Origin: Aplysia californica | Lineage: Eukaryota | Length of the DNA stretch: 64,000 nt | Direction of reading: 5' to 3' | Assembly: GCF_000002075.1 (NCBI RefSeq) | Contig: NW_004797328.1 | Location: 1,823,241 to 1,887,240 of the forward strand | Shown: positions 768-64,000 of the stretch, piece by piece | How positions within the stretch are numbered: position 1 is the stretch's first letter | How the letters are laid out: every line of letters starts with the position of its first letter | Notes under the pieces: generated by a model | Told to the model about the DNA's origin: nothing | Database searches by the model: none | Seen by the model: the letters and a program-made list of their open reading frames with translations, nothing else | Made by a program: the position numbers and the translations under genes

Positions 768-4511
<3,744 letters not shown>

Positions 4512-21980: not shown

Positions 21981-22503
21981 TTGTAAGTTTTTGTAAAGTG
22001 TTTTACGGCGCTCGCAACTGCATAGGTCATATGAGCGCGCGGGACACACCTAATATTTTTAGTTGGTAGGAAATTTCGAATTTTGCCCGGGTGGCGGCCG
22101 AAGCCTACTCTTATCGATTTTAGACCACCAAGGGATCTTTAACGTGCGCAACTTACACACGGGCCCTCCGAGATTTTTCGCCCTTGTCCGAGAAGGCTAG
22201 GTGTAGATCTTTCCTACCAGAAGATCAGGGGTGTGGCAGAAAGACAGCAGTAAAGAGGAGCCAAGGAGTAGCAGTAGAAAGGCTGCAGAAAGAGTCAGGA
22301 GCCCAGAGGAGGGGGCAAAGGAGGTGAGGGGGTGGGGGCAGAAAGAGGAGACGAAAGCAGACGACAGAATATTGCTAGAGAGCAGGAAAGGAGGTGAAAG
22401 AGACAATTTTAGAGAAGAAAATTGTTCGGTCGCTACCCGGATTCGAACCCGGGACCTTTGAATGAGAGGCCAACACCTTAACCTCTAGGCCACGAGAGCC
22501 CCC
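21981..22503 (-). mobile_element. Full-length tRNA-derived SINE with Deu/Nin-like core (family 1)
   Basis: Head GGGGCTCTCGTGGCCTAGAGGTTAAGG...GGTTCGAATCCGGG (A and B boxes). Core GCACGTTAAAGATCCCTTGG...TAAGAGTAGG. 11-bp TSD TGCGGCTGCTT at 21970-21980 and 22504-22514. Confidence 0.85.
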
Positions 22504-38700: not shown

Positions 38701-38766
38701 GCTGTGTGTGTAGCTGGTGGCACAAAACACTCAACCCATGCTCCTCCCCCAACACACGCCCGCACG

Positions 38767-38838
<72 letters not shown>

Positions 38839-44800: not shown

Positions 44801-46418
44801 AAACCTGACAAGAGAAAAGAAAGGTAGGTCGCTGGATCCCACTGTTTCCCTGATGCTTGCACTGTATGCTTCATGGGAAGCCAAGAAGTTTCAGAGTGTT
44901 CTGGAGTCATTTGGGGTAATGATATAGATTGTAAAGCACGAAGAGCATGCTGTTGAGCGGTGATGTGTGCCACATAATGTTAATTATTAGGCCTCCGTAT
45001 TTATTATTATCATTGCAGAATAGAATTCGTCAGGGAGATTGAAAAAAAAGTTGGTTCTCAGGTGGGCTAGATGCTTATACAGCTTGTTCTTAGAGAACAC
45101 CAGACTTCAGTTCTGATTTTTAACCAGAAAATTATTTCCCAAGTGGTGAGCCTGAGCTGTCTTGCTTTATCAAATTACAAATCAAAAGTCAAGACGATAT
45201 CTTTTAATTTGACTGTATTTCTTTTGTTCCCCCTCACAGACAGCTGGTTTTCCATCATCGCCAAAGTCTGTCGGAGCAGCTGCGGGAGGAGACTGACCCC
45301 GCAATGACCCTTCACCTCTGTGTGGTCGTCTTGTTCCAGACGGTGACCCAATGCATGCTTCACGCCCCGGGCCGCCTGGTCCCAACCATCTTGCAGTTCC
45401 TGACCACACATTTAGAGGCCGACAAACTAGAGGTTTTGACCCAGATGCAAGGTCAGTTGGTTAAAGGTTATTGCCAGACATTATTCACAGCTTAATTTTG
45501 TTGTGGCTTAAAATGTGAGTTTGAAGTTCTGGATGGGAATGCCTAGTATTCGGACATCTAACAAAATTGCCAATTTGTGGAATGGCAGTAACCTTGCTGG
45601 CCAGGTTTCTTCACTGCTTTGACTGTGTCCAGTCTGACTCACGTGTGCAAACCAAGCTTTGTCGAGGTAACTGTAGGGTCTGTAACAGCTGTTTGCCACT
45701 CACCAGAAGGGAGGGTAATTCTGTTGCTCATCAAGGCCAGAGGGCTAGATGTAGACGTCTTGATATTTGGATGCAAAGCAGCCAGTCTGGTTTTCCCCGT
45801 GGCCTGTTATTACCCTGATCATACAGACTGGACCAGTCAGATCAGTCTACTGTTGCCAAGTTGTTCAAATTCACCAAGCCCAGATGGCGAAATTTTTCCG
45901 GAGAAAGAAACTATTTCATTATTTTAACAATTGTACGCAGATTATGTATTTTTCCTGGTTTTTTTTTTTTACATTTAGAATTTTAGTTTAGTTCAGCAAG
46001 AGTTTTACGGCACTCGCAACTTCATAAGGACTTAGAATTTGAATTTCGACTAAATGTTTATTGAGCGTACACAGATTAAGAAATTGCTATTTAAAATTTT
46101 TTTGTAAATCTAGGGCTTAACACAGTTTAACAGCTGGCTGACAGTAGGCCTACATTCCCAGACCTTCCCACAAGTCACTGTTGTCTTACAAGTAACACTA
46201 AGTCCTCGGCTCAAACTCTACCGTCTCTCTTTCTCAGTTTTGTTTTGTTTTTCTCTCTTCCAGACCTCGTAGTCCGACATGCCAAGCTGAAGGCCGATCC
46301 CGACGGAGAAAATCTGCCCGAGTTCAAAGACGTGGCCAACTCCATGACTGTTTTGTTAGGCAAGGTCAAGGACATTGCCCTGAACACAAAGAAAACCACA
46401 AGCACAGCCGATGATTGA
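26748..46418 (+). CDS. UFL1: E3 UFM1-protein ligase 1, 789 aa
   Basis: Exons 26748-26812, 31798-31943, 33045-33286, 33761-33891, 34592-34650, 35131-35277, 36485-36660, 37390-37560, 38521-38665, 39411-39592, 40507-40580, 41956-42110, 42938-43074, 44651-44823, 45240-45451, 46264-46418. Phases are compatible, total 2370 nt. Motifs LAAEFQxxQL/[69 protein letters not shown]. Exon 1 is the least certain because its donor is atypical. Confidence 0.93.
28036..28692. mobile_element. piggyBac-like MITE in UFL1 intron 1
   Basis: TTAA|CCCTTAGAGCGCTGA ... TCAGCACTCTAAGGG|TTAA. Subterminal palindromes TCGCGACC.G.GGTCGC.ATCAGCACT occur twice. Confidence 0.85.
28835..30025 (-). mobile_element. 1.19-kb hAT-like non-autonomous element with 7-bp TSD, copy 2 (inverted relative to copy 1)
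   Basis: Colinear reverse complement of 24101-25281. Termini TAGCAATGCTAAT / ATTGGCATTGCCA. TSD ACTTAGA (28828-28834, 30026-30032). Confidence 0.85.
31075..31322 (-). mobile_element. SINE family 1, truncated copy
   Basis: Matches 22155-22503 (GAGATTTTTCGC...TCCGAGAAGGCTAGGTGTAGAT...GAGAGCCCCC) with internal deletions. Confidence 0.7.
32283..32990. mobile_element. piggyBac-like element (imperfect TIRs)
   Basis: TTAA|CCCCTTCAATGCTGC ... GCTGCTGTGAAGAGG|TTAA. Confidence 0.5.
35343..35534. mobile_element. Tigger/pogo-like MITE
   Basis: TA|CAGTTGAAC...AATTATGACTG|TA. Related fragments at ~33645-33725, ~34350-34437 and ~40650-40780. Confidence 0.55.
36750..36985. repeat. Minisatellite, ~39-bp unit, ~6 copies
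   Basis: GTTAGGATAGTCTTGTATGTCTACCATTGTATGGGTAAG-like unit repeated. Confidence 0.8.
38768..38834. repeat. (CA)n microsatellite
   Basis: Direct reading. Other (CA)n/(CT)n tracts at 21022-21080, 49958-50103, 54936-55131 and 61240-61303. Confidence 0.95.
41715..41955. repeat. Pyrimidine-rich minisatellite, ~39-bp unit, ~6 copies, ending at the UFL1 exon 12 acceptor
   Basis: TCTTATTGA.ATTTCTTT.TCTTTCCTTCCATCTGTCTG-like unit repeated. Confidence 0.75.
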
Positions 46419-47822
46419 TGCGATGATAGTGCCCGATTTATATGTCGTTGTCCAACAGGGATTTATTATGGAAAGTTTATGATGTGACAAAACTGTCAAA
46501 TGATACTTAGTGATAAGGCATTATAACAGTTGTGCAAACATGTGGATACATAGGCAGTTTTATCAGAGGTCAAAATGTTCTTATCAGACAAAAAGATAAA
46601 GATTCTGCTTGTGTTGGTTTTGAAACTGATCAAAACAGGGTTTTTTTAATTTCACCATGTAATGGTAGGTTTTAAAAAAATTGTTTTATGGAATAATAAA
46701 AGAAGNNNNNNNNNNNNNNNNNNNNNNNNNNNNNNNNNNNNNNNNNNNNNNNNNNNNNNNNNNNNNNNNNNNNNNNNNNNNNNNNNNNNNNNNNNNNNNN
46801 NNNNNNNNNNNNNNNNNNNNNNNNNNNNNNNNNNNNNNNNNNNNNNNNNNNNNNNNNNNNNNNNNNNNNNNNNNNNNNNNNNNNNNNNNNNNNNNNNNNN
46901 NNNNNNNNNNNNNNNNCCCCCTTCTTCCCACTCTCTTTATCAACACATTTTCCGTAGAAGTTAGACATTCCCACTGAGTTACAGTACAGTTGGCAACATT
47001 GCCCCACCTTGCCTGCCATGCGAATCCTGTCCCGTTGATGACACCCCTGTTTTTCAGCATGCTGTTCTCCCTATTCCTGATGTCAATTTTGTTTTGCATT
47101 TTTGTTCCAGGAAAACTTTCATTTACTCTATTTCAGTGGCAACAGAGATTTTTTGCAAATGACTTTCTCAGATGTACACGTTGCTTTACAATGTAAACCC
47201 AACGTGGAGAATCTTTTTTGGGCTTGATTGTGCTCCAAAGTTTCATGCCCATGTTTTTGTCTGTCTTGATCCTAGTGTTCAACTGCACTGTACACAAATG
47301 TGGGATGGTCCATGGTGGGGGCACATAATGAGGAGACCTTGTGGCAGGGTGATTAAACCTCCACCTCATAATGACTCCCGAATGTACAAAATTTCTATGA
47401 TGTATTCTTCTGTGAGTTTTGGTTCAAATGTTTGGTTTTGGGGTAGACAAAAATTGTAAAATTTTATAGAAAATAAAGAATTGTATGAGAGACACTGAGA
47501 GTCACCGAGTGTTCGACTGTTTTTTATTCTCTTTGTTTGGTAAATAATTAGACAAGACTTTATTTTAGTAAATCCTTTACAGTTTGGAGAAAAGTGTTTG
47601 GTTAACTTATTGATAAACTCAAACCAATGGGTGACAAGGAAACACCAAGATGTCGGGATTTTTTTTTTAGATCGTTTGAGCGGAGAAATCAATGGAGAAC
47701 CATGATCGTTGACATGTGTATCAGTTCTGACACGTTTGGATGGTGAGGAATCTGTTAATGACTTTGTATTGTGCCAGTTGGAGTGCGGGATCAGTTGTTC
47801 ATCATTGGGCGATGTTGGTCTC

Positions 47823-50000
47823 TCACATATCCTGGAAATAATCTGAAATGGCGTTTGTAAAATTTATGGGTTAGTTATTGCTCCCTGTCATGATAATATT
47901 GTTTTGACGCTCTGTTGAACGAGGACTTTTATTCGACATTGCGTAGGATCATGTGCGCTCCCATGCTCAAACTAACTCATACTCGCACTCATGCACACAC
48001 ACACACGCAAGCGCACGCACTAAGACGGGCTAAGCAACACACATTATTGACAGGCACGCATGCACGGAACTAGCCCATGGCACTGGTATCTTGCCTGTCA
48101 ACACTTGCAGATAATGGACAGAGTTTAAGATACATGTACATGATGTATTCCCTACTGTTCCGTTCCTCTCCTGATGAGGAGAGAATATACTGTGCACTGT
48201 ACAGTAGCTGCGGCTATCAAGAGAAGCTATCTTGTGAAATGCGACCTTGAAAAAATGTCTTATTTGACCCAGTATAAGTCGTGTCAGTATCTGGGTTCAA
48301 TGAGCACACTGCTATTTCACCAATGATTTTCTATTCAGTATTCAGAAGTTTACCATCCTTTTATCAATGTATTCCGTGGTACCATCCTTCTACCCAGTGT
48401 CAAACATATTGAATGTGAATGGTAGGCGGGTACTTTAATATTATAGCTTGGTCCAATGTCTGTCATCCGTATCATCCTCTTTCTTTTCTTTGTATGATAC
48501 TCTCTTAAAAACATGTGCATTCTTCGGCACTTTACGATCTTTTTGTGTTGCAAGTGCCGTAAAACACTTACTAAAGCTTAAGTTAACTCAAACACTCACC
48601 TTTGTTCTTGTCAGCACATTCCTTGAGGGCATCGGCAGCTTTCTGGCAGTATGACACGTCATCGGCGTAGCTAGATGGTGAAGAGGCGGAGAAGTATTTT
48701 TTGTTTTAGTAGAGGTTTTACGGCACTCGCAACTGCATAATGTAATATGAGCGCCAGAAGATTAGATGTGTTACATGAGAGTAACAAACATAAAAAAGAA
48801 TGAGGGGAGATAAGGACGATAGATGTTTGATAGGAAAGAAGGAGCAAACCACACCAGAGCACCCGCCAACCACCCAGGGAGAAGTGTGGAAAGGGGTAAA
48901 TTCATTGGGAAATGAAGAAAAATCTTGTTTGAGTGAAGAGAAGCACGCCGACGAAATGACAGTCATTTTTAGTGCAGGGGAAACGTTAAGTACACAAAAA
49001 GAAAAAAAGGGGTGAAAGGAAGTAGGATCTAACCATCACAGAGGATATAGAGTCAAGAGTCATGTAGGTTGCACTCAACATTATCTTCCTCCTGGGCACA
49101 TTATGTTTTTGTACCGCTGTGTCTACTCACAGGGCTGGGGCTCTTGTGGTCTTGAGGTTACAGTTTCAGTCTTTGCCTCTCATTCAATTATCAATATGTC
49201 CTGGGCTCGAAACCTGACAGCAACGGAATATTTTCTTCTCTAAATTAACTTTGTCCTTTCAATTTTCATGCTCTCTAATCATGTTCTGTCGTCTGCTCTC
49301 ATCTCCACTTTCTGCTCCCCCTTCCCTGGGCTCTTTCTGCAGCCTTTCTAGGGCTATTCTTTGGCTCCTCTAAACCTAGCCTTCTTGGATAAGGGCGAAA
49401 AATCTCGGAGGTCCCATGTGTAAGTTGTGCACCTTAAAGATCCCTTGGTGGTCCTGAAATCGATAAGAGTAGGCTTCAGCCGCCACCCGGGCAAAATTCT
49501 AAATTAATTCATACCAAATTGTAAATGTTTAATGTGTCCCGCACGCTCATGATCATACTCATATGAGCTGTGAGCACCGCAAAACACTTACCAAAAAACA
49601 AACAAACCAGAAAAGGCAAAAACAAACAAAGAAACAAAAAAACCCTCACCGGGCACAGGCCAAGAAGACGTCCAGCTCCCTGCTGCAGGGGTTCCTGTCC
49701 GGCCCGTCGTCCACGTACTGACCGGTGTCTGGGTCACGGCCCTGGAACATCCGCGACGAGATGGCGTTCCCCAGGACGCTGCCCTGAGGAGAGACGTCAT
49801 CAGGCATTGGTAAGGGGGGAGTGACGTAATCAGGTTTTGGTTTGGGTGGAGGCAGTGACGTAATAAGGTGTTGGTGGAGGGACGTAGATCTAATCAGGCA
49901 TGGGTAGTAGAACAAGAGTTTCAAAATCAAATAATCTGTTACTAATCAAAGAGAAGCACGCACGCGCGCGCGCACGCACACACACACACACAAACACGCG

Positions 50001-50037
<37 letters not shown>

Positions 50038-53000
50038 ATAAACACACTCACCCACACACACAAGGAAAGAGAGGGAGGGCAGAGAGAGAGAGAGAGAGAG
50101 AGAGCAAAGGTCATTAATTTTTCGGGTAGAGACGTCAAAGATGCACAGTTTATTGTGCAAAAACGGGAAAGTGTTTGTGTGTGTGTGGGGGGGGGGGGGG
50201 GGGGGGAGACTGTCCACCATATAATATGTGTTAGTTAACAAAAGTTCAGTCGAATAACTCTTTCCTTGATTCCTCTTTCGTCTTGTCTGAGCTTAATTTT
50301 ACACCCAGCTTTGAGGAAAAGGGGAGGGTAATGCTTATCCTAATTGTTTTAGTTTTTGTTCGGTTTTCTTTTTTTTTTCTTTTTTTTTTTTGGGGGGGGG
50401 GGCTATGCTTTTTAATTTTTAATGTTTTTTTCCGGGGGGGGGGGGTTCTTCAGATAAAGATTATAGTAGTTGTTCACACTATTTTATATCATTTAGGGGT
50501 GGGCTTCTACCCTGCCGGCTTGGGTTAACCAAGGTCATCTTCGGCACATATAGCCTATTCGCATTGCAAGTGCCTTAAAATTATAACTCAAGCTAAACTA
50601 AAAACGGCATGTGTAGCTCTAGCAGTATATTACACAAACGATGGTCTGATGAACACGTCAGAATTGTTGAAAAGATGTATACACTCACCAGAGCCGAGCC
50701 AATGAACGATCCAGCTATAACCCCGCCTATCCCCGCCCCGCCCCCTCTTGGTGGGGTGTAGGGGGCGGGGCGTCGAGGGGGCGGTGGCCGCCGTGGTGGA
50801 GGAGGCGTTGGTCGCTGGGACCGTCTGGGCGGGGAGGGCGATCTGTGAGGATGGAGAAGTCATGTGTGTTTTTGAAATACAGTAATATGTAACAAATTCC
50901 ACTCTATTGATCCCATTGGGAAATTTATTAAATTATAGGCTTACATAAATACACAAACATTAATCACCATCATCATCATCAATGCCTTTCACCCCTGGCA
51001 GGGTATAGGCCACATATACAAGCTTCTTCCATAAGTTCCATCTATCTCTGTCCTGGGCCTTATTTCCAAGCTCGTTCCAAGTGAGCATCATCTCTCTCAT
51101 GTTCCTTCCCATACATCTCCTCGTTTCCCGTGGCCTACGCCTGCCTCGTGCTCCCTGTGGGTTCCACAGCAGGGACTGTTTTGTGATGTTTCCCCTGGGC
51201 TTTCTGAGAGTGTGTCCCATCTATCGCCACTTTCTTAGTCCTATTTTTACTTCTCTTTAGTCCTGTCCTTTCCCACAGCTCTTCATTTCTTATTCAATCC
51301 TTCCTCTTAAGTCATCTCCTGATGAAAGTCTGGACTTTATTCTGTACTATCTTTGTTGTCTTCCAAGTTTCGCAGCCGAAGAGGAGCACAAACTTGACAT
51401 TGGAGTTAAAGAAACGAGTCGAATCTTGGTGCGCAGTGAGATGTTGCTTGCTTTGCAGACTTTTGCTAATGATTGAATGCTGACAATGCCTTGGCAGTTC
51501 TTGCTTTTACATCTGCCCCGGTTCCACCTTTATTATCGATGACACTTGCGGGGTAGATAAAGGAGCCCACTTCTTCCAGGACTTGCCAGGATGTAAACAT
51601 AGGCCAACACTCCTTGATTGGCTTTTGAGCTCCTTGGTCTTTTCTTGCATCAGAGCATGTGTGCGAGAGAGCAGTGCAAGATCATCGGTGAAGTCTAAGT
51701 CGTCCAGCTGCTGCCAAGGGGTCCACTGTATTCCATTACGCTTGCCTCAAGTGGCTTCTTTCACGACCCAGTCAATTGCCAGTATGAAGAAAAAAGGTGA
51801 GAGCAAGCATCCTTATCTCACTTCTGTCTGTACCCGGAATGGTTCTAAGAGTTGTCCTTCATAGAAGATTTGGCAAACCTTCACAAGATTGGCAATTTTG
51901 TAAGGTATTCCTTAATGCCGCATGAATGTCCAAAGAGTTTCCCTGTCCATGCTGTCAAATGACTTTTCATAATCAATGAAGTTGACCACAAGTGGTGAAT
52001 TTCATTTAATCGATTGCTCAACCACGATGCACAGAGTAGTGATCTGGTCCACACATGATCAGTTCTTGCAGAATCCTGCCTGGTTTCCTCGGAGCTTCTC
52101 ATCTGTTGTCAGCTTGATTCTCTCCAGGAGTATCATGTAAAAGACTTTCCCAGGTATGGAAAGGAGGGAAATGCCTCTGTAGTTGTAACCATTGCTAAGG
52201 TCTCCCTTCTTTAGAAGCTTGATTATGGGACCTACCTTCCAGTCTGGTGGTATTTCTGCTCTTGTCAAACCTTTTCAAATACTGTAGAGCATCGGCCGCC
52301 ACCTGGGCAAAATTCAAAATCTCCTACCAACTGAAAACGTTTAATGTGTTCCGTGCGCTCATCATATGACCTTATGCAGTTGCGAGTGCCGTAAAACACT
52401 TGCAAAAACAAAAAAGAACATTGAGAATTTCTACTGATGTATCTTTATCTATTTTATGGCTTCTGGTGGTATATGGTCAGGACCAGCTGCCTTGTGGGAC
52501 TTAGTGATGCTTTAGCTGCAGCAATTTCCTTTCTCGATAGTGGTTCCTTAACTCTTGTGAAACGCTTCTAATCTTCTGCATTTATATAACCTTATTGTGT
52601 TGAAAGTGTCGTAAAACTTTTGCTAAAACTAAAATTAATGGGTTTCGGTGCTAATGGCCATTGTTCGATTCTTCTTTTAGTTTTCGACATTCTAATCTTT
52701 GAGTAAGCCTACTGTGTTCTTTTGATTTCATTATACTCCCTTATCACCGCTCTAAGATCATGTAAAAGGCGAGTTCTCAGAATTTATCCTACCCCTCAGA
52801 GCCACCTAGGCCCTACCCATGTAGATAGAGAGTCTCGCACCCGCCCCCCCCCCTTTCCCTCCAACCCCCGAAAAATAAGTCCAGAAAAGTTCCACTGAGG
52901 GGTTGATAAGTCCAACCAGGGCCTTTAACACAATGGTCCAACATTTCTTTCTTTCTTTTCTTTCTTTCTTTCCTTCTTTCTTTCAAACACAGAAAAGGAG

Positions 53001-54723
53001 GAGGAATGATAAGGACGATAGATATTTGATAGGAAAGAAGGAGCAAATCACACTAGAGCACCCGCCAACCACGTCCTATGGAANNNNNNNNNNNNNNNNN
53101 NNNNNNNNNNNNNNNNNNNNNNNNNNNNNNNNNNNNNNNNNNNNNNNNNNNNNNNNNNNNNNNNNNNNNNNNNNNNNNNNNNNNNNNNNNNNNNNNNNNN
53201 NNNNNNNNNNNNNNNNGAAACCCATAAGCGATATATTATACATGCATTGTGTGTATAACATACACTGATGTAGGAACCCTTTAGCGACATACTGTGTAAT
53301 ATACAAAATACGTTACAAGTATTCATATAACCTTAGAGCATGCATAACAATTACATTGAGTATGTATGAACCTTAAGATTATTTTTGTTTATAATACTGT
53401 TCATTTATATTAGGCANNNNNNNNNNNNNNNNNNNNNNNNNNNNNNNNNNNNNNNNNNNNNNNNNNNNNNNNNNNNNNNNNNNNNNNNNNNNNNNNNNNN
53501 NNNNNNNNNNNNNNNNNNNNNNNNNNNNNNNNNNNNNNNNNNNNNNNNNNNNNNNNNNNNNNNNNNNNNNNNNNNNNNNNNNNNNNAGAAGAATCTTATC
53601 TTAAACTGATATAGGAACCCGTTAACGATGTTATACATAAATATATAATATAACATAAACTGACATAGGAGCCCAGTAGTGTAGCGATATACTATGTATT
53701 ATATTATATGTAACATAAACTGGCACAGGAACCCAGTAGCGATATACTATGTATAACATAAACTGACAATAAACGGAGCTAGAAGTTGTAATCCAACAGT
53801 TTGGAGTCGTTAACTTGCTCCTCTGATGCATACCCTTCACTGACGCGTTGAGATTATGCCCATCACTAGCAGTTTAAGTGTGGGTGGGTGGCAGGTGATA
53901 CGGTGTGGTTTGCTCTTTCTTTCCTATCAAACATCTACGTATAATCATCTTTATCTCTCTCCTTTTTTGTGCGTTACTATCTTGCAACACATCTAATCTC
54001 GGGTAGGCTACTTATGTATTATTATTATGATATTGTGTTGCAAGTGCTGTAAAATTCACTCTAAAACTTTAAAGTAAACATTTTAACATGTCCAACACAA
54101 CTCCTTGAGATTATGATCTATCTTGGAACCCAAACCGGACGCTTTTTCGTTCCTCCCCGTCAAATAAAAGGTGGTCTGTTCAGTGTTGTGAGTCCTATAT
54201 AATTATAATTTTACATAATATGATTAATAATTTGTAGGCCTCCTATTTTTGGCGCTGTTAAGAGCAAACTTTAGTCTGCTTGGTATACTGAACCAACTGG
54301 CGTCTGTAGTAGGCTATAGAGATTAGGTGTTTTGCCATCATAGGCATGAGACCCGTTTTCGATTCCCGGGTGAAGAAATTTTTTGTCGAATATCTCGGTC
54401 TTTCACAGGCTGAGATGTAGATCCAGATCTAGATATCTAGATCTAGATGAACTAGATATAGATATAGATCTAGATCTAGATCTAGATCTAGATCTATATC
54501 TAGTATCCCTTTTACTTTTTTACTTTTAGTCTACGTTGGTCCTGACAGGCAGGGTTAAAGTTTAAAGCCGCTTCTTAAATGATCTAAATTGTGTCGATGA
54601 GGGTGTAAAAGCTCTTATATTTTAAAAGAAATGATTTCAGAGATTTCGTCTGTCACTGCCAACGCAAGGTTTCCACTACCTGCCAAATCCTCGCCCACCT
54701 CCGAACCCCCGGCCTCTCGGCAT
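47823..54723 (-). CDS. CHCHD2/CHCHD10 (Mix17)-like twin-CX9C mitochondrial protein, copy A, ~140 aa
   Basis: Exons 54723-54680, 50842-50689, 49783-49650, 48670-48600, 47842-47823 (last exon less certain). All GT-AG and in phase. Protein: MPRGRGFGGGRGFGRSPSPPRRSQRPTPPPPRRPPPPRRPAPYTPPRGGGAGIGGVIAGSFIGSALGSVLGNAISSRMFQGRDPDTGQYVDDGPDRNPCSRELDVFLACARYADDVSYCQKAADALKECADKNKDYFQDM*. MPRG start, Arg/Pro-rich N-terminus, GxxxG hydrophobic helix and C-terminal PCxxELxxFLxCA...CX9C match the CHCHD2/10 architecture. Confidence 0.85.
49137..49592 (+). mobile_element. SINE family 1 copy
   Basis: Reverse complement of 21981-22503 (head GGGGCTCTTGTGG, core TTAAAGATCCCTTGGTGG...GATAAGAGTAGGCTTC). Confidence 0.75.
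50968..52275 (-). mobile_element. Degraded RTE-clade LINE RT with (TGA)n tail
   Basis: IPPDWKVGPIIKLLKKGDLSNGYNYRGISLLSIPGKVF, LRGNQAGF, LDFTDDLALL, GHTLRKP...WNPQGARGR, AQDRDRW. Many stops and frameshifts. Confidence 0.9.
53218..53770. repeat. AT-rich minisatellite interrupted by gaps
   Basis: Repeated ATAACATAAACTGA.ATAGGAACCC..TAGCGATATACTATGT unit. Confidence 0.65.
54416..54504. repeat. (TAGATC)n self-complementary microsatellite
   Basis: Direct reading. Similar arrays at ~1360-1390, 20850-20900, 25402-25465, 32735-32752, 43868-43890, 44129-44165 and 63395-63800. Confidence 0.9.
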
Positions 54724-54745
54724 TGCCCTTGTGTCTGTAATGGAA

Positions 54746-54754
54746 CCGGAAGTG
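54746..54754. promoter_or_regulatory. ETS/GABPA-type motif CCGGAAGTG just upstream of the copy A start codon
   Basis: Perfect consensus about 25 nt upstream of the ATG at 54723. Common in promoters of nuclear-encoded mitochondrial genes. Function not shown. Confidence 0.4.
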
Positions 54755-54982
54755 TTTGGTAAAAGTTCTCAAAAGCGTCGACCTAAGGAAATGTGCGTGG
54801 TGCTGAATGGTTCAGACTTAAAAGTAGACTTCCTAACCTTTACTTAGAAGTAGAAGTAGAAGACCATCTCCTCAAGGAAAAACTGTGTTAATCTCACTCC
54901 AAGTATGGTTTAGCCTGTTCACCTCACCCCCCCCCCTCTCTCTCTCTCTCTCCCCCCCCCTCTCTCCCTCTCTCTCTCTCTC

Positions 54983-55017
<35 letters not shown>

Positions 55018-55058
55018 CGCTCTCTCTCTCTCTCTCTGTATCGCTCTCTCTCTCTGTA

Positions 55059-55134
<76 letters not shown>

Positions 55135-55689
55135 ACTCCCCAAAGGGGTGGGGTTGTATGGGAGTGGGGGCAGGGTCGAGGCGGGAGGGGGGAGTCAGCT
55201 GCTGTTATAGGATGACATTTCTAAAAGATGGATGTGGGGGGTAAGTGCAAGGGATGAGGAACGATAGGAAGAGGTCGTGGCAAAGTGCATGAGGACAAAT
55301 GAAAGATGTGGTAGAAGATGGGGGAGTGATTGAGTGGTAATGGCCTGTCTAGATGTCTGGAGGACGAACACACTTTTTTAAACAAATTAGATCTTTGGTT
55401 TAGATTAGAAGTTATTCAGTCTTTGCTTTGCGAAAAGCGTGGTTAACGCCCGTTTCGTATTGATTAAAAAAAAAGAAAGTAGAAAGAGGGGCTTAAAGGT
55501 AGGAGATCCAGGGGTAGACAAATAGTGAAATGGATGGACATTATGGCATGGACTGGTCTGGGTATAGCAGAATGTGCCACTGCAGCTTGCGACCGTGAAG
55601 GCTGGAGGGTCATTACACGTCAACCTAGATAACACCTACAGGTATGCAGGGTTTTAACAAATGTAAATACATTTACGTAAATGTTTGCT

Positions 55690-56005
55690 CTCCCATTGAT
55701 TGCAACAACTAGAGAGGTATCTCACTTCTAAGCATCACTGGAAAAGCTTTTGCTAGAATCATCCTGAAGCGACTCCAGAAACTAGCAGAAAGAGTCCTAC
55801 CAGAGAGCCAAAGCGGTTTCAGATCAAACCGTTCAAGCATGGACATATTTTATATTCACCAGCTACAAAAAATACAGGGAGCAACAACTGCCATCACATA
55901 CACTACACTGCGTTCATCGATCTGACAAAGGCTTTAGATAGTTTTTAGTTAGTAGATCAGGACTGTGCATGGTTCTAGGAAAAATTGGCTGTTCCCCAAT
56001 ACTTT
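55690..56005 (+). mobile_element. LINE reverse-transcriptase fragment
   Basis: Translates DCNN*RGISLLSITGKAFARIILKRLQKLAERVLPESQSGFRSNRSSMD ... AFIDLTKA. Confidence 0.85.
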
Positions 56006-58469
56006 TTAATATTAATCATGAATTAGTCATGAAAAGAACCTGCATGGGGATAACAGTAACAGTGAGACCATCTTAAGCTAAACTGACCGTCTGAATAGAT
56101 GAAAAGAGTCATATACAATATTTTTCCATATTAATAAATAAGGGCCGCCAGTCTGGGGGAGGTAATTATGCTAGAAACACCGTCTCTGGACACGGCATCC
56201 ACCTTTAACTTTAATTTAGTTTTGGTACAAAAATTACAGCACTTAAAACAAAAAATAGGTAATGTAACTGCCAAAGATTAGAAGTGACACTAGATAGTAA
56301 AACACAAATTAAAGGAGGAAAGACAAGGACGGTAGATTTTTAATAGGAAGAAGAAGTAAACCACACCAGAGCTCCGGCCAACCACCCACCTTGCACCTCG
56401 ACCTTGGGGTTGGAGAACTTGTCTCGCTATGCTTTTTTAGCAAACCAGCGATCACGTTTCAATCACAGCATGAAGGTGTTGAGCCTTCACTCCGGTTCAT
56501 ACAAGTATAATCATTAAGTGTATTTCGGTCTCTCAGTCTCTGTATTTCTACTGATTATAAATCTCATTTTACGCCCCCCTTGACACAGTTTTTGGCCAAG
56601 CCGCGTTGGGTGGAACCCGGCACACCAGCAGCTAGAAGGAGATTAGATACCAGATAAAAATAAAACTTCTCCACCAGAGAATCGAACGCTCGTTTTTGGT
56701 TGGCAACGGCGTAGAATCTATTTTTTTAATTAAAAAAAACAACAACAACCCCGAGCTTGTTTGTTTGGGGGAGGGTGGGGGGGGGGTTATAATTTTGTCG
56801 ATAGATGGATGGATTGATCGATGGATGGATAGAAAGTAACTTGTGAAAAACAAACACGTAAATCTGTTTGCATATTTTTAGACAATACGTTTAATTTGTA
56901 GAAGAAGACATGAATATCTCGCTGTCAACGTTGACCTTGGTACGCGTGTTCTTGAGTTATTTTCAAAGCTTCGGTGTTGATAGACGCCATAGTTGTGAGT
57001 TTTCGCAGCTCCTTCCTCCCAGCATTTGTTTGTTGAATCTGGTAGACGTGTAGGGCTTTGACTTAGTTTGTAAAAAACAACAACCCAGACAAACAAACTA
57101 GATAAAACTAAACTACCCGATAAAACTAAACTACACCTTTAGTCTGACATCAGAAAATGCCTAGGATCCATCAATTGAACCGTACACTTGATAAACAAAC
57201 AAATAAACAAATGAATGAACAAATGAATATATAAATGAATGAATAAATGAATGAATGAATGAATAAATGTTGATGCTGAAATGTGGGTTACAATGAAAAG
57301 AACGAGCGTTGGTCCATGTCAAACAATACCCAAGACGTTATAAATACAACCAAACACGCCATGTAATCTGGCCACTCTTCTTGCGTGCTTGTTATCGTCT
57401 TTTGCTCAAGGTCACACCCCAACAGCCATGCCGGACTACCATGAGGGTGACCTCGCTTGGAACCTCCAACAAGGTGTCCTTGACCTTGGTTTATTTGGGA
57501 AGTTTCAAGACTATATTATTATATTCCCCGGACTTGGCTTCCTCCTAACTACTATGGACATTGAATTCATAGGTTCTGCTTCTTGGCACCATTACAATAT
57601 TGAAAGAGATGTTCACCCATCCCGTAATATTTTTATACCTATCGGCTGAACAGATAAAATCATTAATTTAATTTAACACAAGTAGCAGGCCTACAAGAAA
57701 GATTGAATTCTGAATGTACAAAAAAACATGAAACAGATAAGAGCAATAATATAGCCATAGTAAAATGCTATTTCCATACTTTGGAGTTAAGGCAGACTAC
57801 AGGACAGCACTTGTAGCTCCAGAAAGCTGACGTGTCTTTGTTGGAACAGAAATAAACCCAAGAGATAAATGTATCATGCTATAGTTCGTATAGATTCACA
57901 GATAGACTGACGTCTCAGTATATCTTTCTATTTCCTCATACCACTCCATACGAGCCTCGATAACATCGAAGATAAATTATGTTTTGTCAAGTGCAGTGTT
58001 ATCACTAAATGTTGTTCGGGAAAATCGAAGATTAGATATCTGTGTTAACGCCTGCCATTGCTTTCGTGGGCTGTCGTGACACCGCAACAAACCAACATAC
58101 ATTCTTTTGTAAGGACGCTGACACTGTTGGAACATGATAATAATAATCATTAATATTATAGACAGAACATTTTCAATGGATCTAGGGAACTCATCATAAA
58201 GTTCCCGACCTGAAACAAACATCGGTGATTGGGGTTCTCCATTTATTTCTCCTCTCGGACACTCTTAAACATCCTAAATTATCCTGGTGTTTTCCCATCA
58301 ACCATCTGTCCAGGTTTTTCAAATAAGTGTCTGTCTGCCGCTGCTTCGCTTGCTTTTAATTTTTTTTTTTAGGGAGAGCAAGATGTTCAAAGCCTTATAA
58401 TATGTTGATATAGGAAACTACTGGTGTACAAAATTATTAAAAAGAAAATGTCAGCATGCGTATCAGATA

Positions 58470-58837
58470 AGTCGGTAGAGTTTTGGTTCGCAAAACGTCT
58501 GCTGCGTATCTCATGGACAGAAAAACAAGGAAGAAGTCTTGGTTGAAGCAAATGCATACAGTAACTTATGACGAATATACGAAAGCGACAGGCGAAGTTC
58601 ATTGGACAATCATAGCGGAAAGAAGCTTTGGAGAATATTGTAACAACAGGTAAGTTTGATGGAAAGAGAGGCAGACGCAGACAGAGCGAAAAGATATTGG
58701 ACCGGTTGACAACATGGCTGGGAACAGCAAGAACGACAGACACCATCGCTGCAACGTAAGACAGAGTGAAGTGGAGGTCCACGATCGCCCCCTCCAGTCG
58801 GCAAGGCACCTGATGATGATGATGATGATGATGATGA
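58470..58837 (+). mobile_element. LINE 3' end with (TGA)n tail
   Basis: RLLRISWTEK, IRKRQAKFIG, LENIVTTGKFDGKRGRRR-like translation, ending GGCACC(TGA)n. Confidence 0.75.
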
Positions 58838-58980
58838 GATGAGTGTGAATTCCTAGAAGTCACAAGATAGAGACCCATCAGTAGAACAAAAAAGCCGGTG
58901 CGCCTGACAATGTAAAGCCAAATGTGGCACGTGTGTCCATGGTCTACTCACCTTTAGATGTTCCAGTTAGCGACCAGGGA

Positions 58981-61258
58981 TCACTTGCCGAAATAAGCTG
59001 GGAATGAATCGAGNNNNNNNNNNNNNNNNNNNNNNNNNNNNNNNNNNNNNNNNNNNNNNNNNNNNNNNNNNNNNNNNNNNNNNNNNNNNNNNNNNNNNNN
59101 NNNNNNNNNNNNNNNNNNNNNNNNNNNNNNNNNNNNNNNNNNNNNNNNNNNNNNNNNNAAAGGAAGGAATAGACAAGTCTTTTGATATGCACACCTGATT
59201 TGATCATCGTTGTGAATGGGCTTTCTAAATAATCGGATAGGGTCTGATACGGGGAAATGTACGCACCTTTAAAATCTTACAAGCATGCTTTCCAAAATGT
59301 TTATTCTTTCCCTTAGATTTTGTAAGAATTTTACGACACTAGCAACACAATTAGGTTATACAAGTGCAAACGATTAGAGGTGTTAGGGTGCTCTCGTAGC
59401 CTTGAAGTGAAGGTGTTCGCCTCTCATTCACTAGGTCCCTGGTTCAAATCCGGATAGGGACGGAAAATTTTCTTCTTTCAAAATGTTCTCCTTTTAAATC
59501 CTTTCCTGCTCTTTAACAATGTTCTGTCGTCTGCTTCTGTCTCAACTTTCTGCCCCCACCCCCTCAGCTTCTTTGCCCCCTCCACTGGGCTCCCGATTCT
59601 TTCTGCAGCCCTTAGTGCTGTCTTTCAGCCAGACAACTGATCTTATGGTAAGGAAGATCTACACCTTGCCTTCTCGGAGACGGACAAAAAAATCCCGGAG
59701 ATCCCTTGTGCAAGCTGTGCGAGTTAAAGATACCTTGGTGGTCCAAAATAGATAAGATAAGGCTTCGGCCGCCACCCGGGCAAAATTCTTAATGCCCTAA
59801 CAACTGAAAATGTTTAGTGTGTCCCGCGCGCTCAAAATGACATTATGTAGTTGCGAGCGCTGTAAAACACTTACCCCCAAAAAGGTGGGGGGCGGGGGGG
59901 CGGGGAGATGTTACAAGACAGTAACAAACACAAAAAGAAAGAGAGATGAGAACGATTGATGTTTGACAGAAAAAAAAGAAAGAAAGAAACAGACCACACC
60001 ACAACACCCGCCAACCACCCACACCCCATACTACTGATCCCAAGTCGGAAATAACACATTTGTGTGTGTGTGGGGGGGGGGGGGTATTTTTGTTTTTTGG
60101 GAGTTTTTTTGGTAAGTGTTTTACAGCGTTCTCAACTGCATAAGGTCATAAGAGCGTGTGGGACACATTAAACTATTTCAGTTGGTAGGAAATTTTGAAT
60201 TTTGCCCGGGTGGCGGTCGAAGCCTACTCTTATCGATCTTAGACCACCAAATCTGTGTTTGGGAGGGTATTAAACATCATAATTGTCATAAAAACAAGAC
60301 AACTTAACCTCTTCACTGCTAGATGTGAGAATTGAGTGGTGAGGCAAGTCTTCTTGTAAAAGCACATTCCTGCGTTTCATAAATTTTAGTTTTTAGAGAC
60401 CAAAAATAATCCACTGTATACTTCTTTTTTAGTTAGAATTTAGTTTGGTATAGTCGTCCCCTCTCCATCGACGGCCCAATAATTGTCAAGGCTCAACCCC
60501 ACAACAATTTGACAGTGAGCTGATCCTGCTGAGACGACCTTGGTGTTTACAAAACGTTGTCTTCCCCTGCAGATTCCCAAACTTTTTTATCCCTCAGATG
60601 TATCAATGTCATGCTCATACAATGCCGGAACAACAAAGGGGGAACTGCTGCTTCTTCCGTCTTCATCCTTACTATCGCCATTTTTTCCTCAACTTCTTTT
60701 GTATGTTTGTCACTCTCCTGCGAACTGCTATTCCCGGGGTGCCTAGATAGTCGAAGCAGACTTGGGTACCGTTGTGGCTACAGGAGTGAGCAGAGTAGGC
60801 CCGATTCCCCGTTTGGACGTCTTTGTTGATATCCACCTCTTGGCGCTCATATGACCTTATGCAGTTGCGAGGGCCGTAAAACCTTACTAAAAAAAAAACA
60901 CCCAAAGAACGAAGACTTGGTAAATGACTTCAGATTTGTTGTCACCCCCTCCTTCCCTTTCGGCGCCACACAAGTGGCTGCCAATTTTGAATAAAGCACA
61001 AATAACCATCCCTGTTACACTTTTTACGGTACTATTCTCTTGTTGGGAATAAAGTATACCTGGGTTGGTGAGTACGCATTTCTTTAAGTGCTCGATAGCT
61101 TTGACACAGGTGGTGGCTTCTGTAAGCTGGTTGCTGTGGATATATTGATTGGGAGAGTTTTGAGTTTGAGGATGAGCAATAGGCACGTCTACACGCGCAC
61201 ACACACATACACATTATACAAAATCCCATACACGTACAAACACACAAACACACACACA

Positions 61259-61300
<42 letters not shown>

Positions 61301-62673
61301 CACAAACTCGTTCACATACACACGTATAAACACAGCCACCAGCTCGCACGCGCATAGGCATACATACAAAAAGCCATACATATACTTTCATATGCACACA
61401 ACCATTACCATACACATACACATGTATAGGCACAAGCATGTACACTAGCGCAAAGACTTTCTTGCCTTTCAATTTATGGTTGCTGTAGAATGCTAATGAG
61501 ACTAAGCACAGCTCTTGCGGACATACTACGATACATTATGACGAGTTGTTTGTAACAGCCATGACAAAAGGTGTCAGTCAAAATGTTACATCCTACATAA
61601 TATATTATGATGAGATGGGGTGGGATGATATGATATAATGTGTCATACGACGTGACACATGATCTGATATGATTTAATGACTTGCAAATATCTTGTCTTC
61701 CATTATATCTTAAAGCGCATCTGGAGGCACAAGTCGTGCCTGTAGTTGTGTGGTTGCGACAAAGATTACCTAGCCAAAGAGACGAAGTCGTCCAGTTCCT
61801 TCTTGCACGGGTTGCTGTCCTCGCCCACCGCTGTCCACTGCCCTGTTTTATATTCCCTGCCCTGAAGCATCTTGGCGGCCACTCCGCTGCCAAAGGCAGT
61901 TCCCTGACATTACAGGAAGTATCGTATTTGTCGTTGATCGTTTATGACTGCCTTGGGCTGTGCACCGAAATTACAGGTAACATTTTATTTGTCGTTGATT
62001 GCATTTAATGACTACATAGGGCGGGACCCTGACGTTACAGGAAAACATGTATTTGTCGTTGATTGTTAATGGCTGTGCCCATTACTGGAAAAAAATCATA
62101 GATAGTCAGAGAACAAGTTGGCTCGATCCCTATAAATAAACACTACATAAAATGGTTTGGACATGAAAAGCCCGCCACCAGACAAAGTTGCAGCAGCGAG
62201 AGCATACAATCAGAAAGCAGAAGGATACAGAAGAAGAGGCTGGCCAAGGAAAAGATGGGTACAGGGCGTCAGAGAAACGTTAGACAGAAACCAAATAACC
62301 AAGCAACAGGCAATACAACAAACAAGAGAATACTGTTGTCTTTGAATCCCTAGATTGAATCGTGTAGCTTTTTTTCTACGTCAAAATTGGATTCAACTTG
62401 GTATATTGTTTGTTAGTGGTCATATTTTCTTCGGGTTGCACTTTTTTCCAGTATATATACACAGAGACATTAGAACTACACGTGTCCTTAGATTCAACAA
62501 TTCTCTCAGCAGAAACCAAACACGGTTGCCCCAGTCCTGGACTCACCAGCACTGCGTTCATTGGGGCGCCAGAGATGAGTTTGTGGACACTGGCTCTGGT
62601 CCGGCTAGCGGACATCGTCTTATGGATGGCACCTCGAGACGAGGATCTGCTGCGCTTGCTGTGGGAAGATTTC
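58981..62673 (-). CDS. CHCHD2/10-like paralog, copy B (divergent, second Cys replaced by Leu); first exon unresolved
   Basis: Exons 62673 (or 62658)-62547, 61903-61770, 61133-61060, 58997-58981, with the same intron phases (2,0,2,1) as copy A. Protein: ...KRSRSSSRGAIHKTMSASRTRASVHKLISGAPMNAVLGTAFGSGVAAKMLQGREYKTGQWTAVGEDSNPCKKELDDFVSLASNQLTEATTCVKAIEHLKKCVLTNPAYFGK*. The 134-nt exon has the same length as its copy A counterpart and 19/44 identical residues. A possible first exon is 63131-63079 (MPAARKENTVSIPYSYI, phase 2, weak donor). Confidence 0.75.
59385..59873 (+). mobile_element. SINE family 1 full-length copy
   Basis: Head GGGTGCTCTCGTAGCC...GGTTCAAATCCGG, core and tail as in 21981-22503. 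Further partial copies at ~52292-52405 (+) and ~60112-60250 (-). Confidence 0.8.
62140..62330 (+). mobile_element. LINE 3' fragment
   Basis: KWFGHxK / AARAYNQKAEGYRRRGWPRKRWVQGVRE resembles the RT C-terminus. Confidence 0.6.
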
Positions 62674-62744
62674 CTGGGGTGGGATTAGGGGGTTTGGGAG
62701 CACATCGTTTAGATTAACGTTGTCATAAAGTTATGATTTTATAG

Positions 62745-62950
62745 ATGTGGCGTGGTGTTCATTTATTAAAGTGGCATGGTGTCCATCTCTTAGTGTGACA
62801 CGGTGTCCATTTATTGATGAGCACCTTGTTCACTTATTGATGAGGCACGGTGTCCTTGTATTGATGTCGTTCTTTACCCATTTATTAGTAAGCAGCGGCG
62901 TCAATTTATGTATTGATGAGTCTGGGTATCCAGTTATTGACGAGTCGCCG
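62745..62950. repeat. Degenerate ~24-bp minisatellite
   Basis: Repeated G.GGCA.GGTGTCCATTTATTGAT unit. Confidence 0.65.
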
Positions 62951-64000
62951 TGTTTCAAGTTTACCCAGCCAAATCCAGCTATCTATGTCTCGGGGGGGGG
63001 GGGGGAGAGGGAGGGAGAGGGGGATCGGGGTCTGGGTTTTTTTAGTTCTTTATTTTCTGTCCCAGAAAATGGGGTTACGCAATGTAAGAGTATGGGATTG
63101 AGACAGTATTTTCCTTCCTCGCTGCTGGCATCTTGTTCCCCTTTTTTCTTCTTGTTATGTTTTTTTTTCTCTTTCTCGTTCCAAAACCAACCGTGCGTTT
63201 GTCACAGATAGTTGATCTAGTCTTAGTTCTTTTGACATCCGTGGACCGTTACCACACCGAGGTGTCACTCTTCTATCCTAGACCCTGCCATCTTAGTTAA
63301 GTATTAGAGTCACGAGTCACTGTATCCAAAAGGTTGACGGGTTAATTGCTGGACCACACATGTAATTGAATTGTTAACATTCAACGTCCGTATTTAGATC
63401 TAGAATCTAGATCTAAGATTCTAGACCTTAGATCTAGGGTATTTCCATTAATTGGATGAGCCGCTTATTGGGCACATTCAATAATAATCATTCATATTAC
63501 TGATCACAGACGAGAATACCTTGCCGACTCGAAATAGATTAATTATACAATTCAAACTTTACTCGACAAGCCCGACAGTTGCACACATCCTCAAGTGGAA
63601 TTGAAGCTATTGAATGCTCGAAGTGTGGCCCCTGAAATGATGTGCCGTAACATCTAACTAAATCGACAATTTGCGACATTTTTCAAAGCGAAAATCGTGT
63701 CCAAGGCCCTAAAAAAAAACCTAGATCTCTACATCTAGAATCTAGATATAGAATCTAGATAGATATCTAGATATCTAGATTCTAGATCTAGATCTAGTAA
63801 ATCTATAGTTTACAGCTACAAAATAATACACTTTAAGTTTCAGAGACGGCAGTATTTCTACAAATTTACCAAAATTTTTATGCGTCAGAATTTGTCTCAT
63901 CGGCCACAGCAGAAGCCATAGATCTAAGTCATCTCAACTGAAATTTAATTCTTCCAATTTTTCTATTTTACTTGAAAATTAGTAGGTATTTTTATAGAAG

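Follow-up and report, generated by a model that had tools for sequence, protein, structure and literature searches.

Does the 64,000-nt stretch of Aplysia californica DNA analysed here (the window, which ends at position 64000) hold two copies of the ordinary CHCHD2/CHCHD10 gene, an additional branch of that family, or members of a different group of CX9C proteins? The molecular role of CHCHD2 and CHCHD10, which are Parkinson's and ALS/FTD genes, is still described as unresolved, and invertebrates are described with one copy (fly, worm and yeast are named) in the available text of a preprint (bioRxiv 10.64898/2026.07.15.738671).

An initial annotation had proposed two minus-strand genes, here copies A and B, with intron phases 2,0,2,1 in both. 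This structure was borne out: both are five-exon models with GT-AG sites and open frames. The same applies to the third exons, both of 134 nt with 19/44 identical residues (77/134 nt), and to the tiny last coding exons (20 nt in copy B, 17 nt in copy A). The features are as follows.

54680..54723, minus strand: copy B coding exon 1, 44 nt, with the ATG at 54723, an Arg/Gly-rich start and a phase 2 donor
50689..50842, minus strand: copy B exon 2, 154 nt, encoding a low-complexity stretch rich in Pro and Arg and half (the first) of the hydrophobic Gly/Ala-rich helix, with a phase 0 donor
49650..49783, minus strand: copy B exon 3, 134 nt, second helix half, conserved linker and first CX9C (C99, C109), phase 2 donor
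48600..48670, minus strand: copy B exon 4, 71 nt, second CX9C (C119, C129), phase 1 donor
47823..47842, minus strand: copy B last coding exon, 20 nt including TGA
63079..63131, minus strand: copy A exon 1 as initially proposed, frame kept, without the family's MPR start, probably not genuine
62547..62673, minus strand: exon 2 of copy A (LOC101850634), 127 nt, encoding a stretch rich in Arg, Ser and Lys and the first helix half, phase 0 donor, equal to P0001 from residue 21
61770..61903, minus strand: copy A exon 3, 134 nt, helix, linker and first helix of a CHCH-like hairpin with C95 and Leu for the second cysteine
61060..61133, minus strand: copy A exon 4, 74 nt, second CX9C (C116, C126), phase 1 donor
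58981..58997, minus strand: copy A last coding exon, 17 nt including TGA

Copy B spans 54723-47823 and encodes 140 aa, with AATAAA signals at 47564 and 47528. Its MPR start is common to the database proteins P0001, P0003, P0004, P0011, P0012 and P0013, and acidic/aromatic tails like its own occur in P0002, P0010, P0011, P0012 and P0013. Exons 2-5 of copy A agree in every letter with RefSeq LOC101850634 (P0001) from residue 21 on. The pair had been called hidden, a description that was not borne out: copy A is already a RefSeq gene and the Biomphalaria and Physella relatives are automatically named CHCHD2 or CHCHD2-like. The first 19 residues of P0001, beginning MPR, are encoded nowhere in the window; as the first exon of the public model thus lies outside it, the exon proposed at 63131-63079 is probably wrong. 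By comparison with this model, the true first exon of copy A probably lies past base 64000, and 63131 is possible as an alternative first exon. An assembly gap (59014-59158) is located 16 nt upstream of the acceptor of the last coding exon of copy A.

The tandem pair is real. Local alignment of the two proteins scores 160, against a mean of 25.1 (SD 3.9, maximum 45) in 2000 shuffles, and their introns have only repeats in common. When a family profile was run over the 2836 six-frame segments of the window, the six best rows were exons 2, 3 and 4 of both copies, and no third copy was found among these segments. Rfam and tRNA scans of the 64 kb gave no match. Clusters of TCTAGA repeats near both first exons were considered as a promoter marker and rejected, as they also occur inside UFL1.

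Database searches provided 11 relatives, P0001 (copy A) included, which with copy B form a set of 12 rows; P0005 and P0009, two of the nine matches of one search, were dropped as long repeat proteins matching over short stretches. A later search, which scores only candidates with exact words in common, gave 10 matches among 3182 candidates, from which the protein of copy B itself was absent. A word-indexed search with exon 3 of copy B alone gave no match and is considered unreliable, because P0003, in the searched length range and with several exact words in common, was found later. Atlas searches yielded no usable feature match, and none of the structure rows exceeded TM 0.40. All seven relatives with organism names are euthyneuran gastropods. 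Copy B is 53-73% identical to seven B-like database proteins, of which five are named from pulmonate snails: Biomphalaria glabrata P0003 ('CHCHD2'), Physella acuta P0004 ('CHCHD2-like X2'), Lymnaea stagnalis P0013, Candidula unifasciata P0011 and Bradybaena similaris P0010. These five are members of the subfamily (core identity to B 56-73%), with a common linker motif and, where the hairpin is complete, a common cysteine spacing, but their linker is one residue longer than that of A and B, and they are known only as database annotations; a literature search found no paper describing them. LOC101850634 and LOC101848940, a third Aplysia paralogue among the relatives, were not found in the main texts or supplements searched.

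Copy A is 31-39% identical to all rows. A tree was built from the 12 subfamily rows without outgroup, P0004 being trimmed after exon 3 and P0002 reduced to its CHCH-type part. None of its branches is supported, and copy A groups weakly with the third Aplysia paralogue rather than with copy B (78/86); branch lengths are 1.32 for copy A and 0.27 for copy B. None of four groupings was rejected by topology tests (p-AU 0.145-0.354, the A+B clade having 0.145). Judged by sequence, copy B is the conserved member and copy A the derived one. The initial annotation had seen an old, lineage-specific subfamily produced by tandem duplication: lineage restriction and tandem duplication both stand, but the subfamily is older than the duplication and is also present in pulmonate snails. 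The shorter linker common to A and B hints that the tandem event may be younger than the Aplysia/pulmonate split.

The twin CX9C that had been attributed to both copies holds for copy B (C99, C109, C119, C129) but not for copy A, which has three cysteines (C95, C116 and C126 in P0001 numbering, offsets 0/21/31), a Leu at the second position and halves separated by 10 residues. The full set of four cysteines, at offsets 0/10/20/30, is present in copy B and 7 of the 11 database rows, and P0007 has two, exactly the outer pair. Both copies exhibit the Arg-rich, unstructured N-terminus of CHCHD2/CHCHD10/Mix17: the first 45 residues contain 11 Arg, no Lys, 3 Ser, 16 Pro and no acidic residue in copy B, and 10 Arg, 6 Lys, 12 Ser, 1 Pro and 4 acidic residues in copy A, for which the AlphaFold model has a pLDDT of about 45-52 across residues 1-50. 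Between N-terminus and CHCH domain, both carry a central hydrophobic Gly/Ala-rich helix whose best 19-residue hydropathy, from residues 52-53, is 1.64 in copy B and 1.14 in copy A, the lowest value in a comparison of ten proteins (1.14 vs 1.38-1.84). As the initial annotation had stated, the helix motif that it gave for the family is absent from A and B. The linker that it had singled out is indeed conserved across the subfamily as GR-x-P-x-TG...NPC (in full M-x-x-G-R-x-P-x-T-G...D-x-N-P-C); it counts 21 residues in A and B and 22 in 9 of the 10 other rows, and identity among B-like rows is 59% in the linker, 69% in the helix and 65% in the CHCH part. The model of copy A comprises a disordered N-terminus, a helix (58-74), a linker predicted to be ordered (pLDDT 76-89) in which a bridge links residues 78 and 85, and hairpin helices (96-107 and 113-129). 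With this model, Foldseek gave 0 matches at E <= 0.001 and VIA-align none with Z >= 5 among 48161 chains (best Z 4.8), both uninformative for a small helical hairpin. A single-sequence fold of exon 3 of copy B (pLDDT 53.5) was not usable, and a two-copy complex prediction for residues 44-136 of copy A (score 0.01) speaks neither for nor against binding.

The first and last introns of human CHCHD10 may match in phase, a point given no weight here; support for intron positions from human CHCHD10 variants was sought in the literature and not found. The phase-0 intron of the pair interrupts the helix 33 codons ahead of the first cysteine, in contrast to human CHCHD2, where the distance from the donor at c.300 (PMC8100248) to that cysteine is about 14 codons, and the pair has an extra phase-2 intron splitting the hairpin when compared to the human four-exon structure, as given in the accessible part of PMC5480048. 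The pair further departs from the CHCHD2/10 family in a helix that does not fit the initially given motif, in the fixed-length conserved linker joining helix and hairpin and, for copy A, in the missing second cysteine. On the other hand, like CHCHD2/CHCHD10 (MNRR1/Mic14), yeast Mix17, fly CG5010 and worm har-1, these are proteins of about 15 kDa with a basic low-complexity N-terminus, a Gly/Ala-rich helix and, in copy B, a C-terminal twin CX9C. Copies B (140 aa) and A (136 aa) fall in the size range of 15-18 kDa, and human CHCHD2 has, as copy B, nine residues between its CX9C halves (C134 and C144 are cited), according to the available sections of PMC8100248. The pair probably belongs to CHCHD2/10/Mix17, a placement by architecture in which the canonical proteins were compared by description only.

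Pfam CHCH (PF06747) matches 4 of the 11 alignment members at E <= 0.1 (best E 2.2e-5, 24.9 bits against a cut-off of 27.2); exon 4 of copy B alone gives E 0.0013 and 19.2 bits, also below 27.2, copy A has no Pfam match at E <= 0.1, and P0013 carries PF06747 by the precomputed annotation of the database. Weak glycine-zipper and DUF2076 matches were each found in 5 of the 11 members. An origin from a different CX9C family (e.g., mS37/CHCHD1-like), or from an independent glycine-zipper helix joined to a CHCH hairpin, would make the likeness to CHCHD2/10 convergent. Indeed, the best sequence matches of the family profile among solved structures are the CX9C proteins mS37 (E 0.0013) and NDUFA8, not CHCHD2/10, and the published table lists no human BLAST hit for the transcript following UFL1. 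However, these matches involve profile positions of about 42-87 of 90, that is the CHCH hairpin only: mS37/CHCHD1, NDUFA8 and p8MTCP1, which are subunits of the ribosome or of complex I or consist of CHCH alone, resemble the hairpin weakly (E 0.0013-2.8; for p8MTCP1, 38 residues overlaid, rmsd 2.3, Z 3.5) and match neither helix nor linker. The database searches, including the exact-word search to E 10, brought up no canonical sequence of CHCHD2/10/Mix17, but the latter scored only exact-word candidates. Since the CHCHD1, 3, 4, 5 and 7 transcripts of Aplysia are located elsewhere, NCBI names two relatives CHCHD2 or CHCHD2-like, and the order of basic N-terminus, central hydrophobic helix and C-terminal twin CX9C at about 15 kDa is that of CHCHD2/10/Mix17 in the available text of PMC7909247, PMC5480048 and PMC8100248, we regard an origin in another family as distinctly improbable. 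That these snails would instead have in copy B their only CHCHD2/10 orthologue, evolving fast, could be argued from the one B-like match per pulmonate species and from the name CHCHD2 given by NCBI to the Biomphalaria protein, but is hardly credible: in Aplysia the KEGG K22758 label is on another transcript, XM_005097007.1, the only one so labelled (CHCHD10-like) in the published table, where its CHCH match to human CHCHD10 has 54% identity across 39 aa.

XM_005097007.1 neighbours RNF141, RNASEK, NDUFA9 and PPP1R2, about 3900 accessions from UFL1 and KCTD10. Because this separately located transcript bears the CHCHD10-like/K22758 label, the pair is most likely an extra subfamily and not the orthologue, as the initial annotation had thought possible, XM_005097007 being called canonical by its published labels. 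Aplysia appears to hold four genes, the canonical one (by label), B, A and LOC101848940, in contrast to the single copy described for fly, worm and yeast in the parts available of PMC8100248 and bioRxiv 10.64898/2026.07.15.738671. The subfamily, for which all occurrences to date are from sea slugs and air-breathing snails, appears from these sequences to exist beside the ordinary gene.

As to copy A, it could be a decaying, non-functional duplicate, in line with its long branch, the loss of a structural cysteine, the absence of a Pfam match and the alteration of 8 of the 27 positions invariant in B-type proteins. Yet its frame is open and its seven splice dinucleotides are intact, although its introns share only repeats with those of B, a combination rarely seen in neutral simulations, where open frame and splice sites survived in 0/20000 runs at both 0.5 and 0.7 substitutions per site and in about 0.1% at 0.3. 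Over 82 codons, pN (0.41) is lower than pS (0.66) between the copies, with 0/1000 bootstraps reversed, a pairwise value that averages both branches, and RefSeq models LOC101850634 as coding. Decay is therefore very unlikely; neither copy resembles a pseudogene, and copy A is, on codon evidence, under purifying selection. A second alternative takes copy B as in our preferred reading but holds that copy A left the mitochondrion for the nucleus or cytosol through weak Mia40 trapping and its basic Arg/Ser/Lys-rich N-terminus, the two locations of CHCHD2 being divided between paralogues. The missing second cysteine, the composition of the first 45 residues and the low hydrophobicity of the helix favour it, as does the build-up of human CHCHD2 in the nucleus upon import block (available text of PMC8100248). 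Against it, copy A retains three cysteines in register, outer pair included, and 19 of the 27 B-type invariant positions, and the retention of just the outer pair in P0007 suggests that a single disulfide suffices and remains under selection; this relocation seems to us unlikely.

We consider it likely that the pair consists of coding members of a euthyneuran-gastropod subfamily derived from CHCHD2/CHCHD10/Mix17 and kept beside the canonical gene, copy A having arisen from B by local tandem duplication, probably in the sea-hare lineage, and evolved fast under constraint, with Mia40-dependent import and the linker as a new binding surface. The finding is a lineage-specific duplication within a known family, with a putative mitochondrial localisation and function. 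By analogy with yeast Mix17 and human CHCHD2, the protein would be made in the cytosol and pass the TOM pore; Mia40 would catch the C-terminal cysteines and, through oxidation in the intermembrane space, yield a helical hairpin stapled by disulfides. The helix rich in Gly and Ala may lie at the membrane or pack against partner subunits; the N-terminus, basic and unstructured, may help import or remain exposed at the outer membrane. Import of Mix17 needs Mia40 and the CX9C cysteines, its N-terminus being exposed outside (bioRxiv 10.1101/2024.05.30.596364, in the text available), and import of CHCHD2 is impaired by single Cys mutations (PMC8100248, accessible part). The fixed-length conserved linker, the subfamily's own feature, is probably a short folded hairpin that would offer a different binding surface. 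Copy B could form both disulfides; copy A could form only the outer one (C95-C126) and would leave C116 unpaired, which should make it differ in import or redox behaviour.

The set offers a natural series for the number of cysteines needed in import, with four cysteines in B, three in A and just two in P0007, and bears on the binding partners of the central helix and linker. The 'CHCHD2' entries of Biomphalaria and Physella are probably this paralogue and not the orthologue, which matters for disease-gene modelling in snails. A bolder version, which we hold to be unlikely, is that euthyneuran snails have a new CHCHD2-derived class with the linker as a folded binding module, in which copy A, lacking the second cysteine and carrying an Arg/Ser/Lys-rich N-terminus, escaped Mia40-dependent import and took over the nuclear/cytosolic role seen in human CHCHD2 only under stress; if true, tandem paralogues would naturally split the two CHCHD2 locations in an animal that is a standard model for neuronal ageing. 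In published data, XM_005093135.1, listed directly after UFL1 and corresponding to copy B or A, is expressed in sensory neurons.

Assembled by exon coordinates from the minus-strand reading of the window, copies A and B each give a five-exon model with an open frame, and the intron phases are 2,0,2,1 in both, as had been claimed for a tandem pair in the initial annotation, which was also right about the shared 134-nt exon (exon 3 of both copies, 19/44 residues identical).

Features of the window (coordinates, strand, description)
62673-62547, 61903-61770, 61133-61060, 58997-58981, minus: copy A, exons after the first, assembled by coordinates
54723-54680, 50842-50689, 49783-49650, 48670-48600, 47842-47823, minus: copy B exons, product of 140 aa
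About 32900-46420, plus: UFL1 (E3 UFM1-protein ligase 1) exons, stop near 46418
About 16990-19800 (17-20 kb), minus: BTB-domain exons of a KCTD10/BACURD-like gene, named from the accession adjoining that of UFL1
768-1046, plus: TRIAP1/Mdm35-like exon, matching Pfam UPF0203 with E 6.5e-18
About 50950-52300, minus: decayed retroelement-like fragment, LINE-type by appearance, inside copy B intron 1
2480-3210, minus: second decayed retroelement-like fragment, LINE-type by appearance, DUF6451 match
49369-49598, 21988-22207, 59658-59875, 60105-60250, 52284-52408: dispersed repeat of about 230 nt, copies 76-83% identical
24601-25100 and 29024-29527: 500-nt element, two inverted copies, 85% identical

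Local alignment of the two proteins scores 160, against 25.1 +/- 3.9 (maximum 45) in 2000 shuffles. When a profile was scored against all 2836 six-frame segments of the window, the six internal exons of A and B took the top six ranks and a third copy was not found; dispersed repeats are the sole sequence common to their introns. From residue 21, the database protein P0001 (Aplysia californica LOC101850634, annotated as an uncharacterized protein) corresponds letter for letter to copy A exons 2-5. Its first 19 residues have no coding match in the window and its N-terminus starts with MPR, as do B and five further relatives, which places the true first exon of A just past base 64000; the first exon proposed at 63131-63079 is thus probably wrong, and is possibly an alternative start. 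The protein of B itself was absent from the 6 matches among 8000 scored candidates and the 10 matches among 3182 candidates of two word-limited searches, known to miss true relatives, so that current protein sets may have no entry for it. Assembly gaps occur in or beside the pair (59014-59158, 53084-53216, 53417-53586 and 46706-46916), the first of them preceding the last acceptor of copy A by 16 nt.

A two-sequence exon 3 profile, scored against 1.84 billion representatives with E up to 0.001, retrieved nine proteins including seven relatives; the two others, repeat proteins, were dropped. All searches pooled yielded 11 database proteins, seven with species assigned: two from Aplysia (the second being LOC101848940, placed on a contig of another length) and those of Biomphalaria glabrata (labelled 'CHCHD2'), Physella acuta ('CHCHD2-like isoform X2'), Lymnaea stagnalis, Bradybaena similaris and Candidula unifasciata. 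Each of these six species belongs to the Heterobranchia, Euthyneura, and no match from other molluscs or animals was present among the seven named of 11, which, with so short a query, bounds the range only loosely; the suggestion of a lineage-specific CHCHD-type subfamily is supported. Core identity reaches 53-73% between B and seven B-like rows, and 31-39% between A and every row. The nine invariant positions of the core alignment all fall in the first hairpin helix and in the linker (GR-x-P-x-TG...NPC) that joins the hydrophobic helix to the CHCH hairpin; among B-like rows, identity in the linker (59%) comes near that in the helix (69%) and the CHCH part (65%). Almost constant in length, the linker measures, from Met to first cysteine, 22 residues in 9/12 rows, 21 in A and B and 20 in the database member P0007. 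The shortening common to the two copies points to a sister relationship of A and B and to a tandem event later than the split from pulmonates. The tree had no supported branch, with A grouping weakly with LOC101848940 (78/86), and the topology test did not reject an A+B clade (p-AU 0.145). LOC101848940 (P0008), outside the window, is a third Aplysia member with four cysteines, a much altered helix and an acidic N-terminus (8 acidic residues and 3 Arg in the first 45). The N-terminal region of P0007 presents the helix segment repeated twice, and P0002, a fatty-acid-binding/lipocalin domain fused to a B-type C-terminal half, is probably a merged gene model.

In twin CX9C hairpins, disulfides pair the first cysteine with the fourth and the second with the third. 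The C-terminal twin CX9C attributed to both copies is present in B, with cysteine offsets 0, 10, 20 and 30 as in 7/11 database rows, and lacking in A, which has three cysteines (offsets 0, 21, 31), the second being replaced by Leu. Given this pairing, A, as read from its sequence, can form only the outer bond, leaving one thiol free. P0007 has lost its second and third cysteines and kept the outer pair. Copy A nevertheless looks to be under constraint. Over 82 codons aligned between A and B, pN is 0.41 and pS 0.66 (dN 0.60; dS about 1.6, which is close to saturation), and pN < pS held in 1000/1000 bootstraps, a pairwise measure that averages both branches. Under neutral simulation, the frame stayed open and all seven splice dinucleotides remained intact in ~0.1% of cases at 0.3 substitutions per site and in 0/20000 at both 0.5 and 0.7. 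Most amino-acid change lies on the branch of A (1.32 vs 0.27 for B), and A retains 19 of the 27 positions invariant in B-type proteins.

The AlphaFold2 model of A (11 aligned rows, mean pLDDT 68, pTM 0.50) predicts helices at 58-74 and, for the hairpin, at 96-107 and 113-129, after an N-terminus that is disordered. The linker is modelled as ordered, pLDDT being 76-89 for residues 71-100, and a bridge connects its residues 78 and 85. Fold searches with this model were uninformative. Among solved structures, the best matches by sequence to the family profile were CX9C proteins and were confined to the hairpin (mS37, E 0.0013). Pfam CHCH matches 4/11 members at E up to 0.1, none reaching the cut-off in these scans, and the helix region weakly matches DUF2076 in 5/11 and glycine-zipper models in 5/11.

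Tables supplementing two RNA-seq studies of Aplysia neurons (PMC8195618, PMC7522570) list KCTD10 as XM_005093133 and UFL1 as XM_005093134. The sole row of its table with KEGG K22758, XM_005097007.1, is labelled CHCHD10-like and aligns with residues 100-138 of human CHCHD10 at 54% over 39 aa (E 3e-9); its accession neighbours are RNF141, RNASEK, NDUFA9 and PPP1R2. Since this transcript, known here by its published labels alone, stands among other neighbours, the pair is probably not the canonical gene, in agreement with the distinctness from the CHCHD2 orthologue initially proposed as possible. Directly after UFL1 comes XM_005093135.1, without human or KEGG match in these tables, which accession order would make B, or else A should B lack a model. 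Both neuron types express it, at scaled values of 2.6-3.6 and 3.2-4.0, compared with 5.3-5.7 for the CHCHD10-like gene's transcript and 3.2-3.7 for that of MIA40. It shares a 3036-transcript module with the CHCHD10-like gene, which counts for little as evidence. The table has no rows for accessions 5093136-138, but it excludes low-variance transcripts and is uninformative on the other copy.

Beyond gene structure, conservation, cysteine pattern and predicted fold, we infer location and function throughout. Yeast Mix17 cannot do without Mia40 or its own four cysteines for import; the N-terminus of Mix17, which contains Arg, makes import more efficient and is accessible from the cytosol (bioRxiv 10.1101/2024.05.30.596364). 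The conserved functional part is the central hydrophobic stretch (PMC7909247, PMC5480048), and CHCHD2/10 complexes measure 150-200 kDa (bioRxiv 10.64898/2026.07.15.738671). As B has every Mix17/CHCHD2 element cited, the most likely reading, which we consider fairly probable, is that B would be imported by Mia40, reside in the intermembrane space or in association with the outer membrane, and act beside the canonical gene, the new linker giving it partners other than those of the canonical protein. Single cysteine changes impair import of human CHCHD2, and a block of import leads to its build-up in the nucleus (PMC8100248). Copy A would most likely be a one-disulfide variant of the B-type protein; a relocation of A out of the mitochondrion, a bolder reading, seems improbable.

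The pair's proteins resemble CHCHD2/10 in architecture, A departing from them by its incomplete twin CX9C, and on that architecture membership by descent is likely. Literature searches on CHCHD2 in molluscs, Aplysia and Biomphalaria/snails, on CHCHD2 paralogs/duplication and on both LOC numbers, with most subscription papers outside their reach, found no description of the subfamily; the one mollusc mention was of CHCHD2 in a clam, with SNPs that contrast between the sexes (PMC9803972). The pair is a real, undescribed, lineage-specific variant within a known family.

UFL1, on the plus strand, ends at ~46.4 kb, tail to tail with copy B, whose 3' end is at 47823; the putative polyadenylation signals of the two genes are close to each other (plus 46695, 47352, 47472; minus 47564, 47528). 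The TRIAP1/Mdm35-like exon, ~47 kb from the pair, encodes another twin CX9C protein, for which the family profile search of the window detected no resemblance to the pair. The ~230-nt repeat, without match in Rfam and tRNA scans, occurs in introns of A and B and elsewhere, and the two retroelement-like fragments are related, their translated pieces being 41-62% identical.
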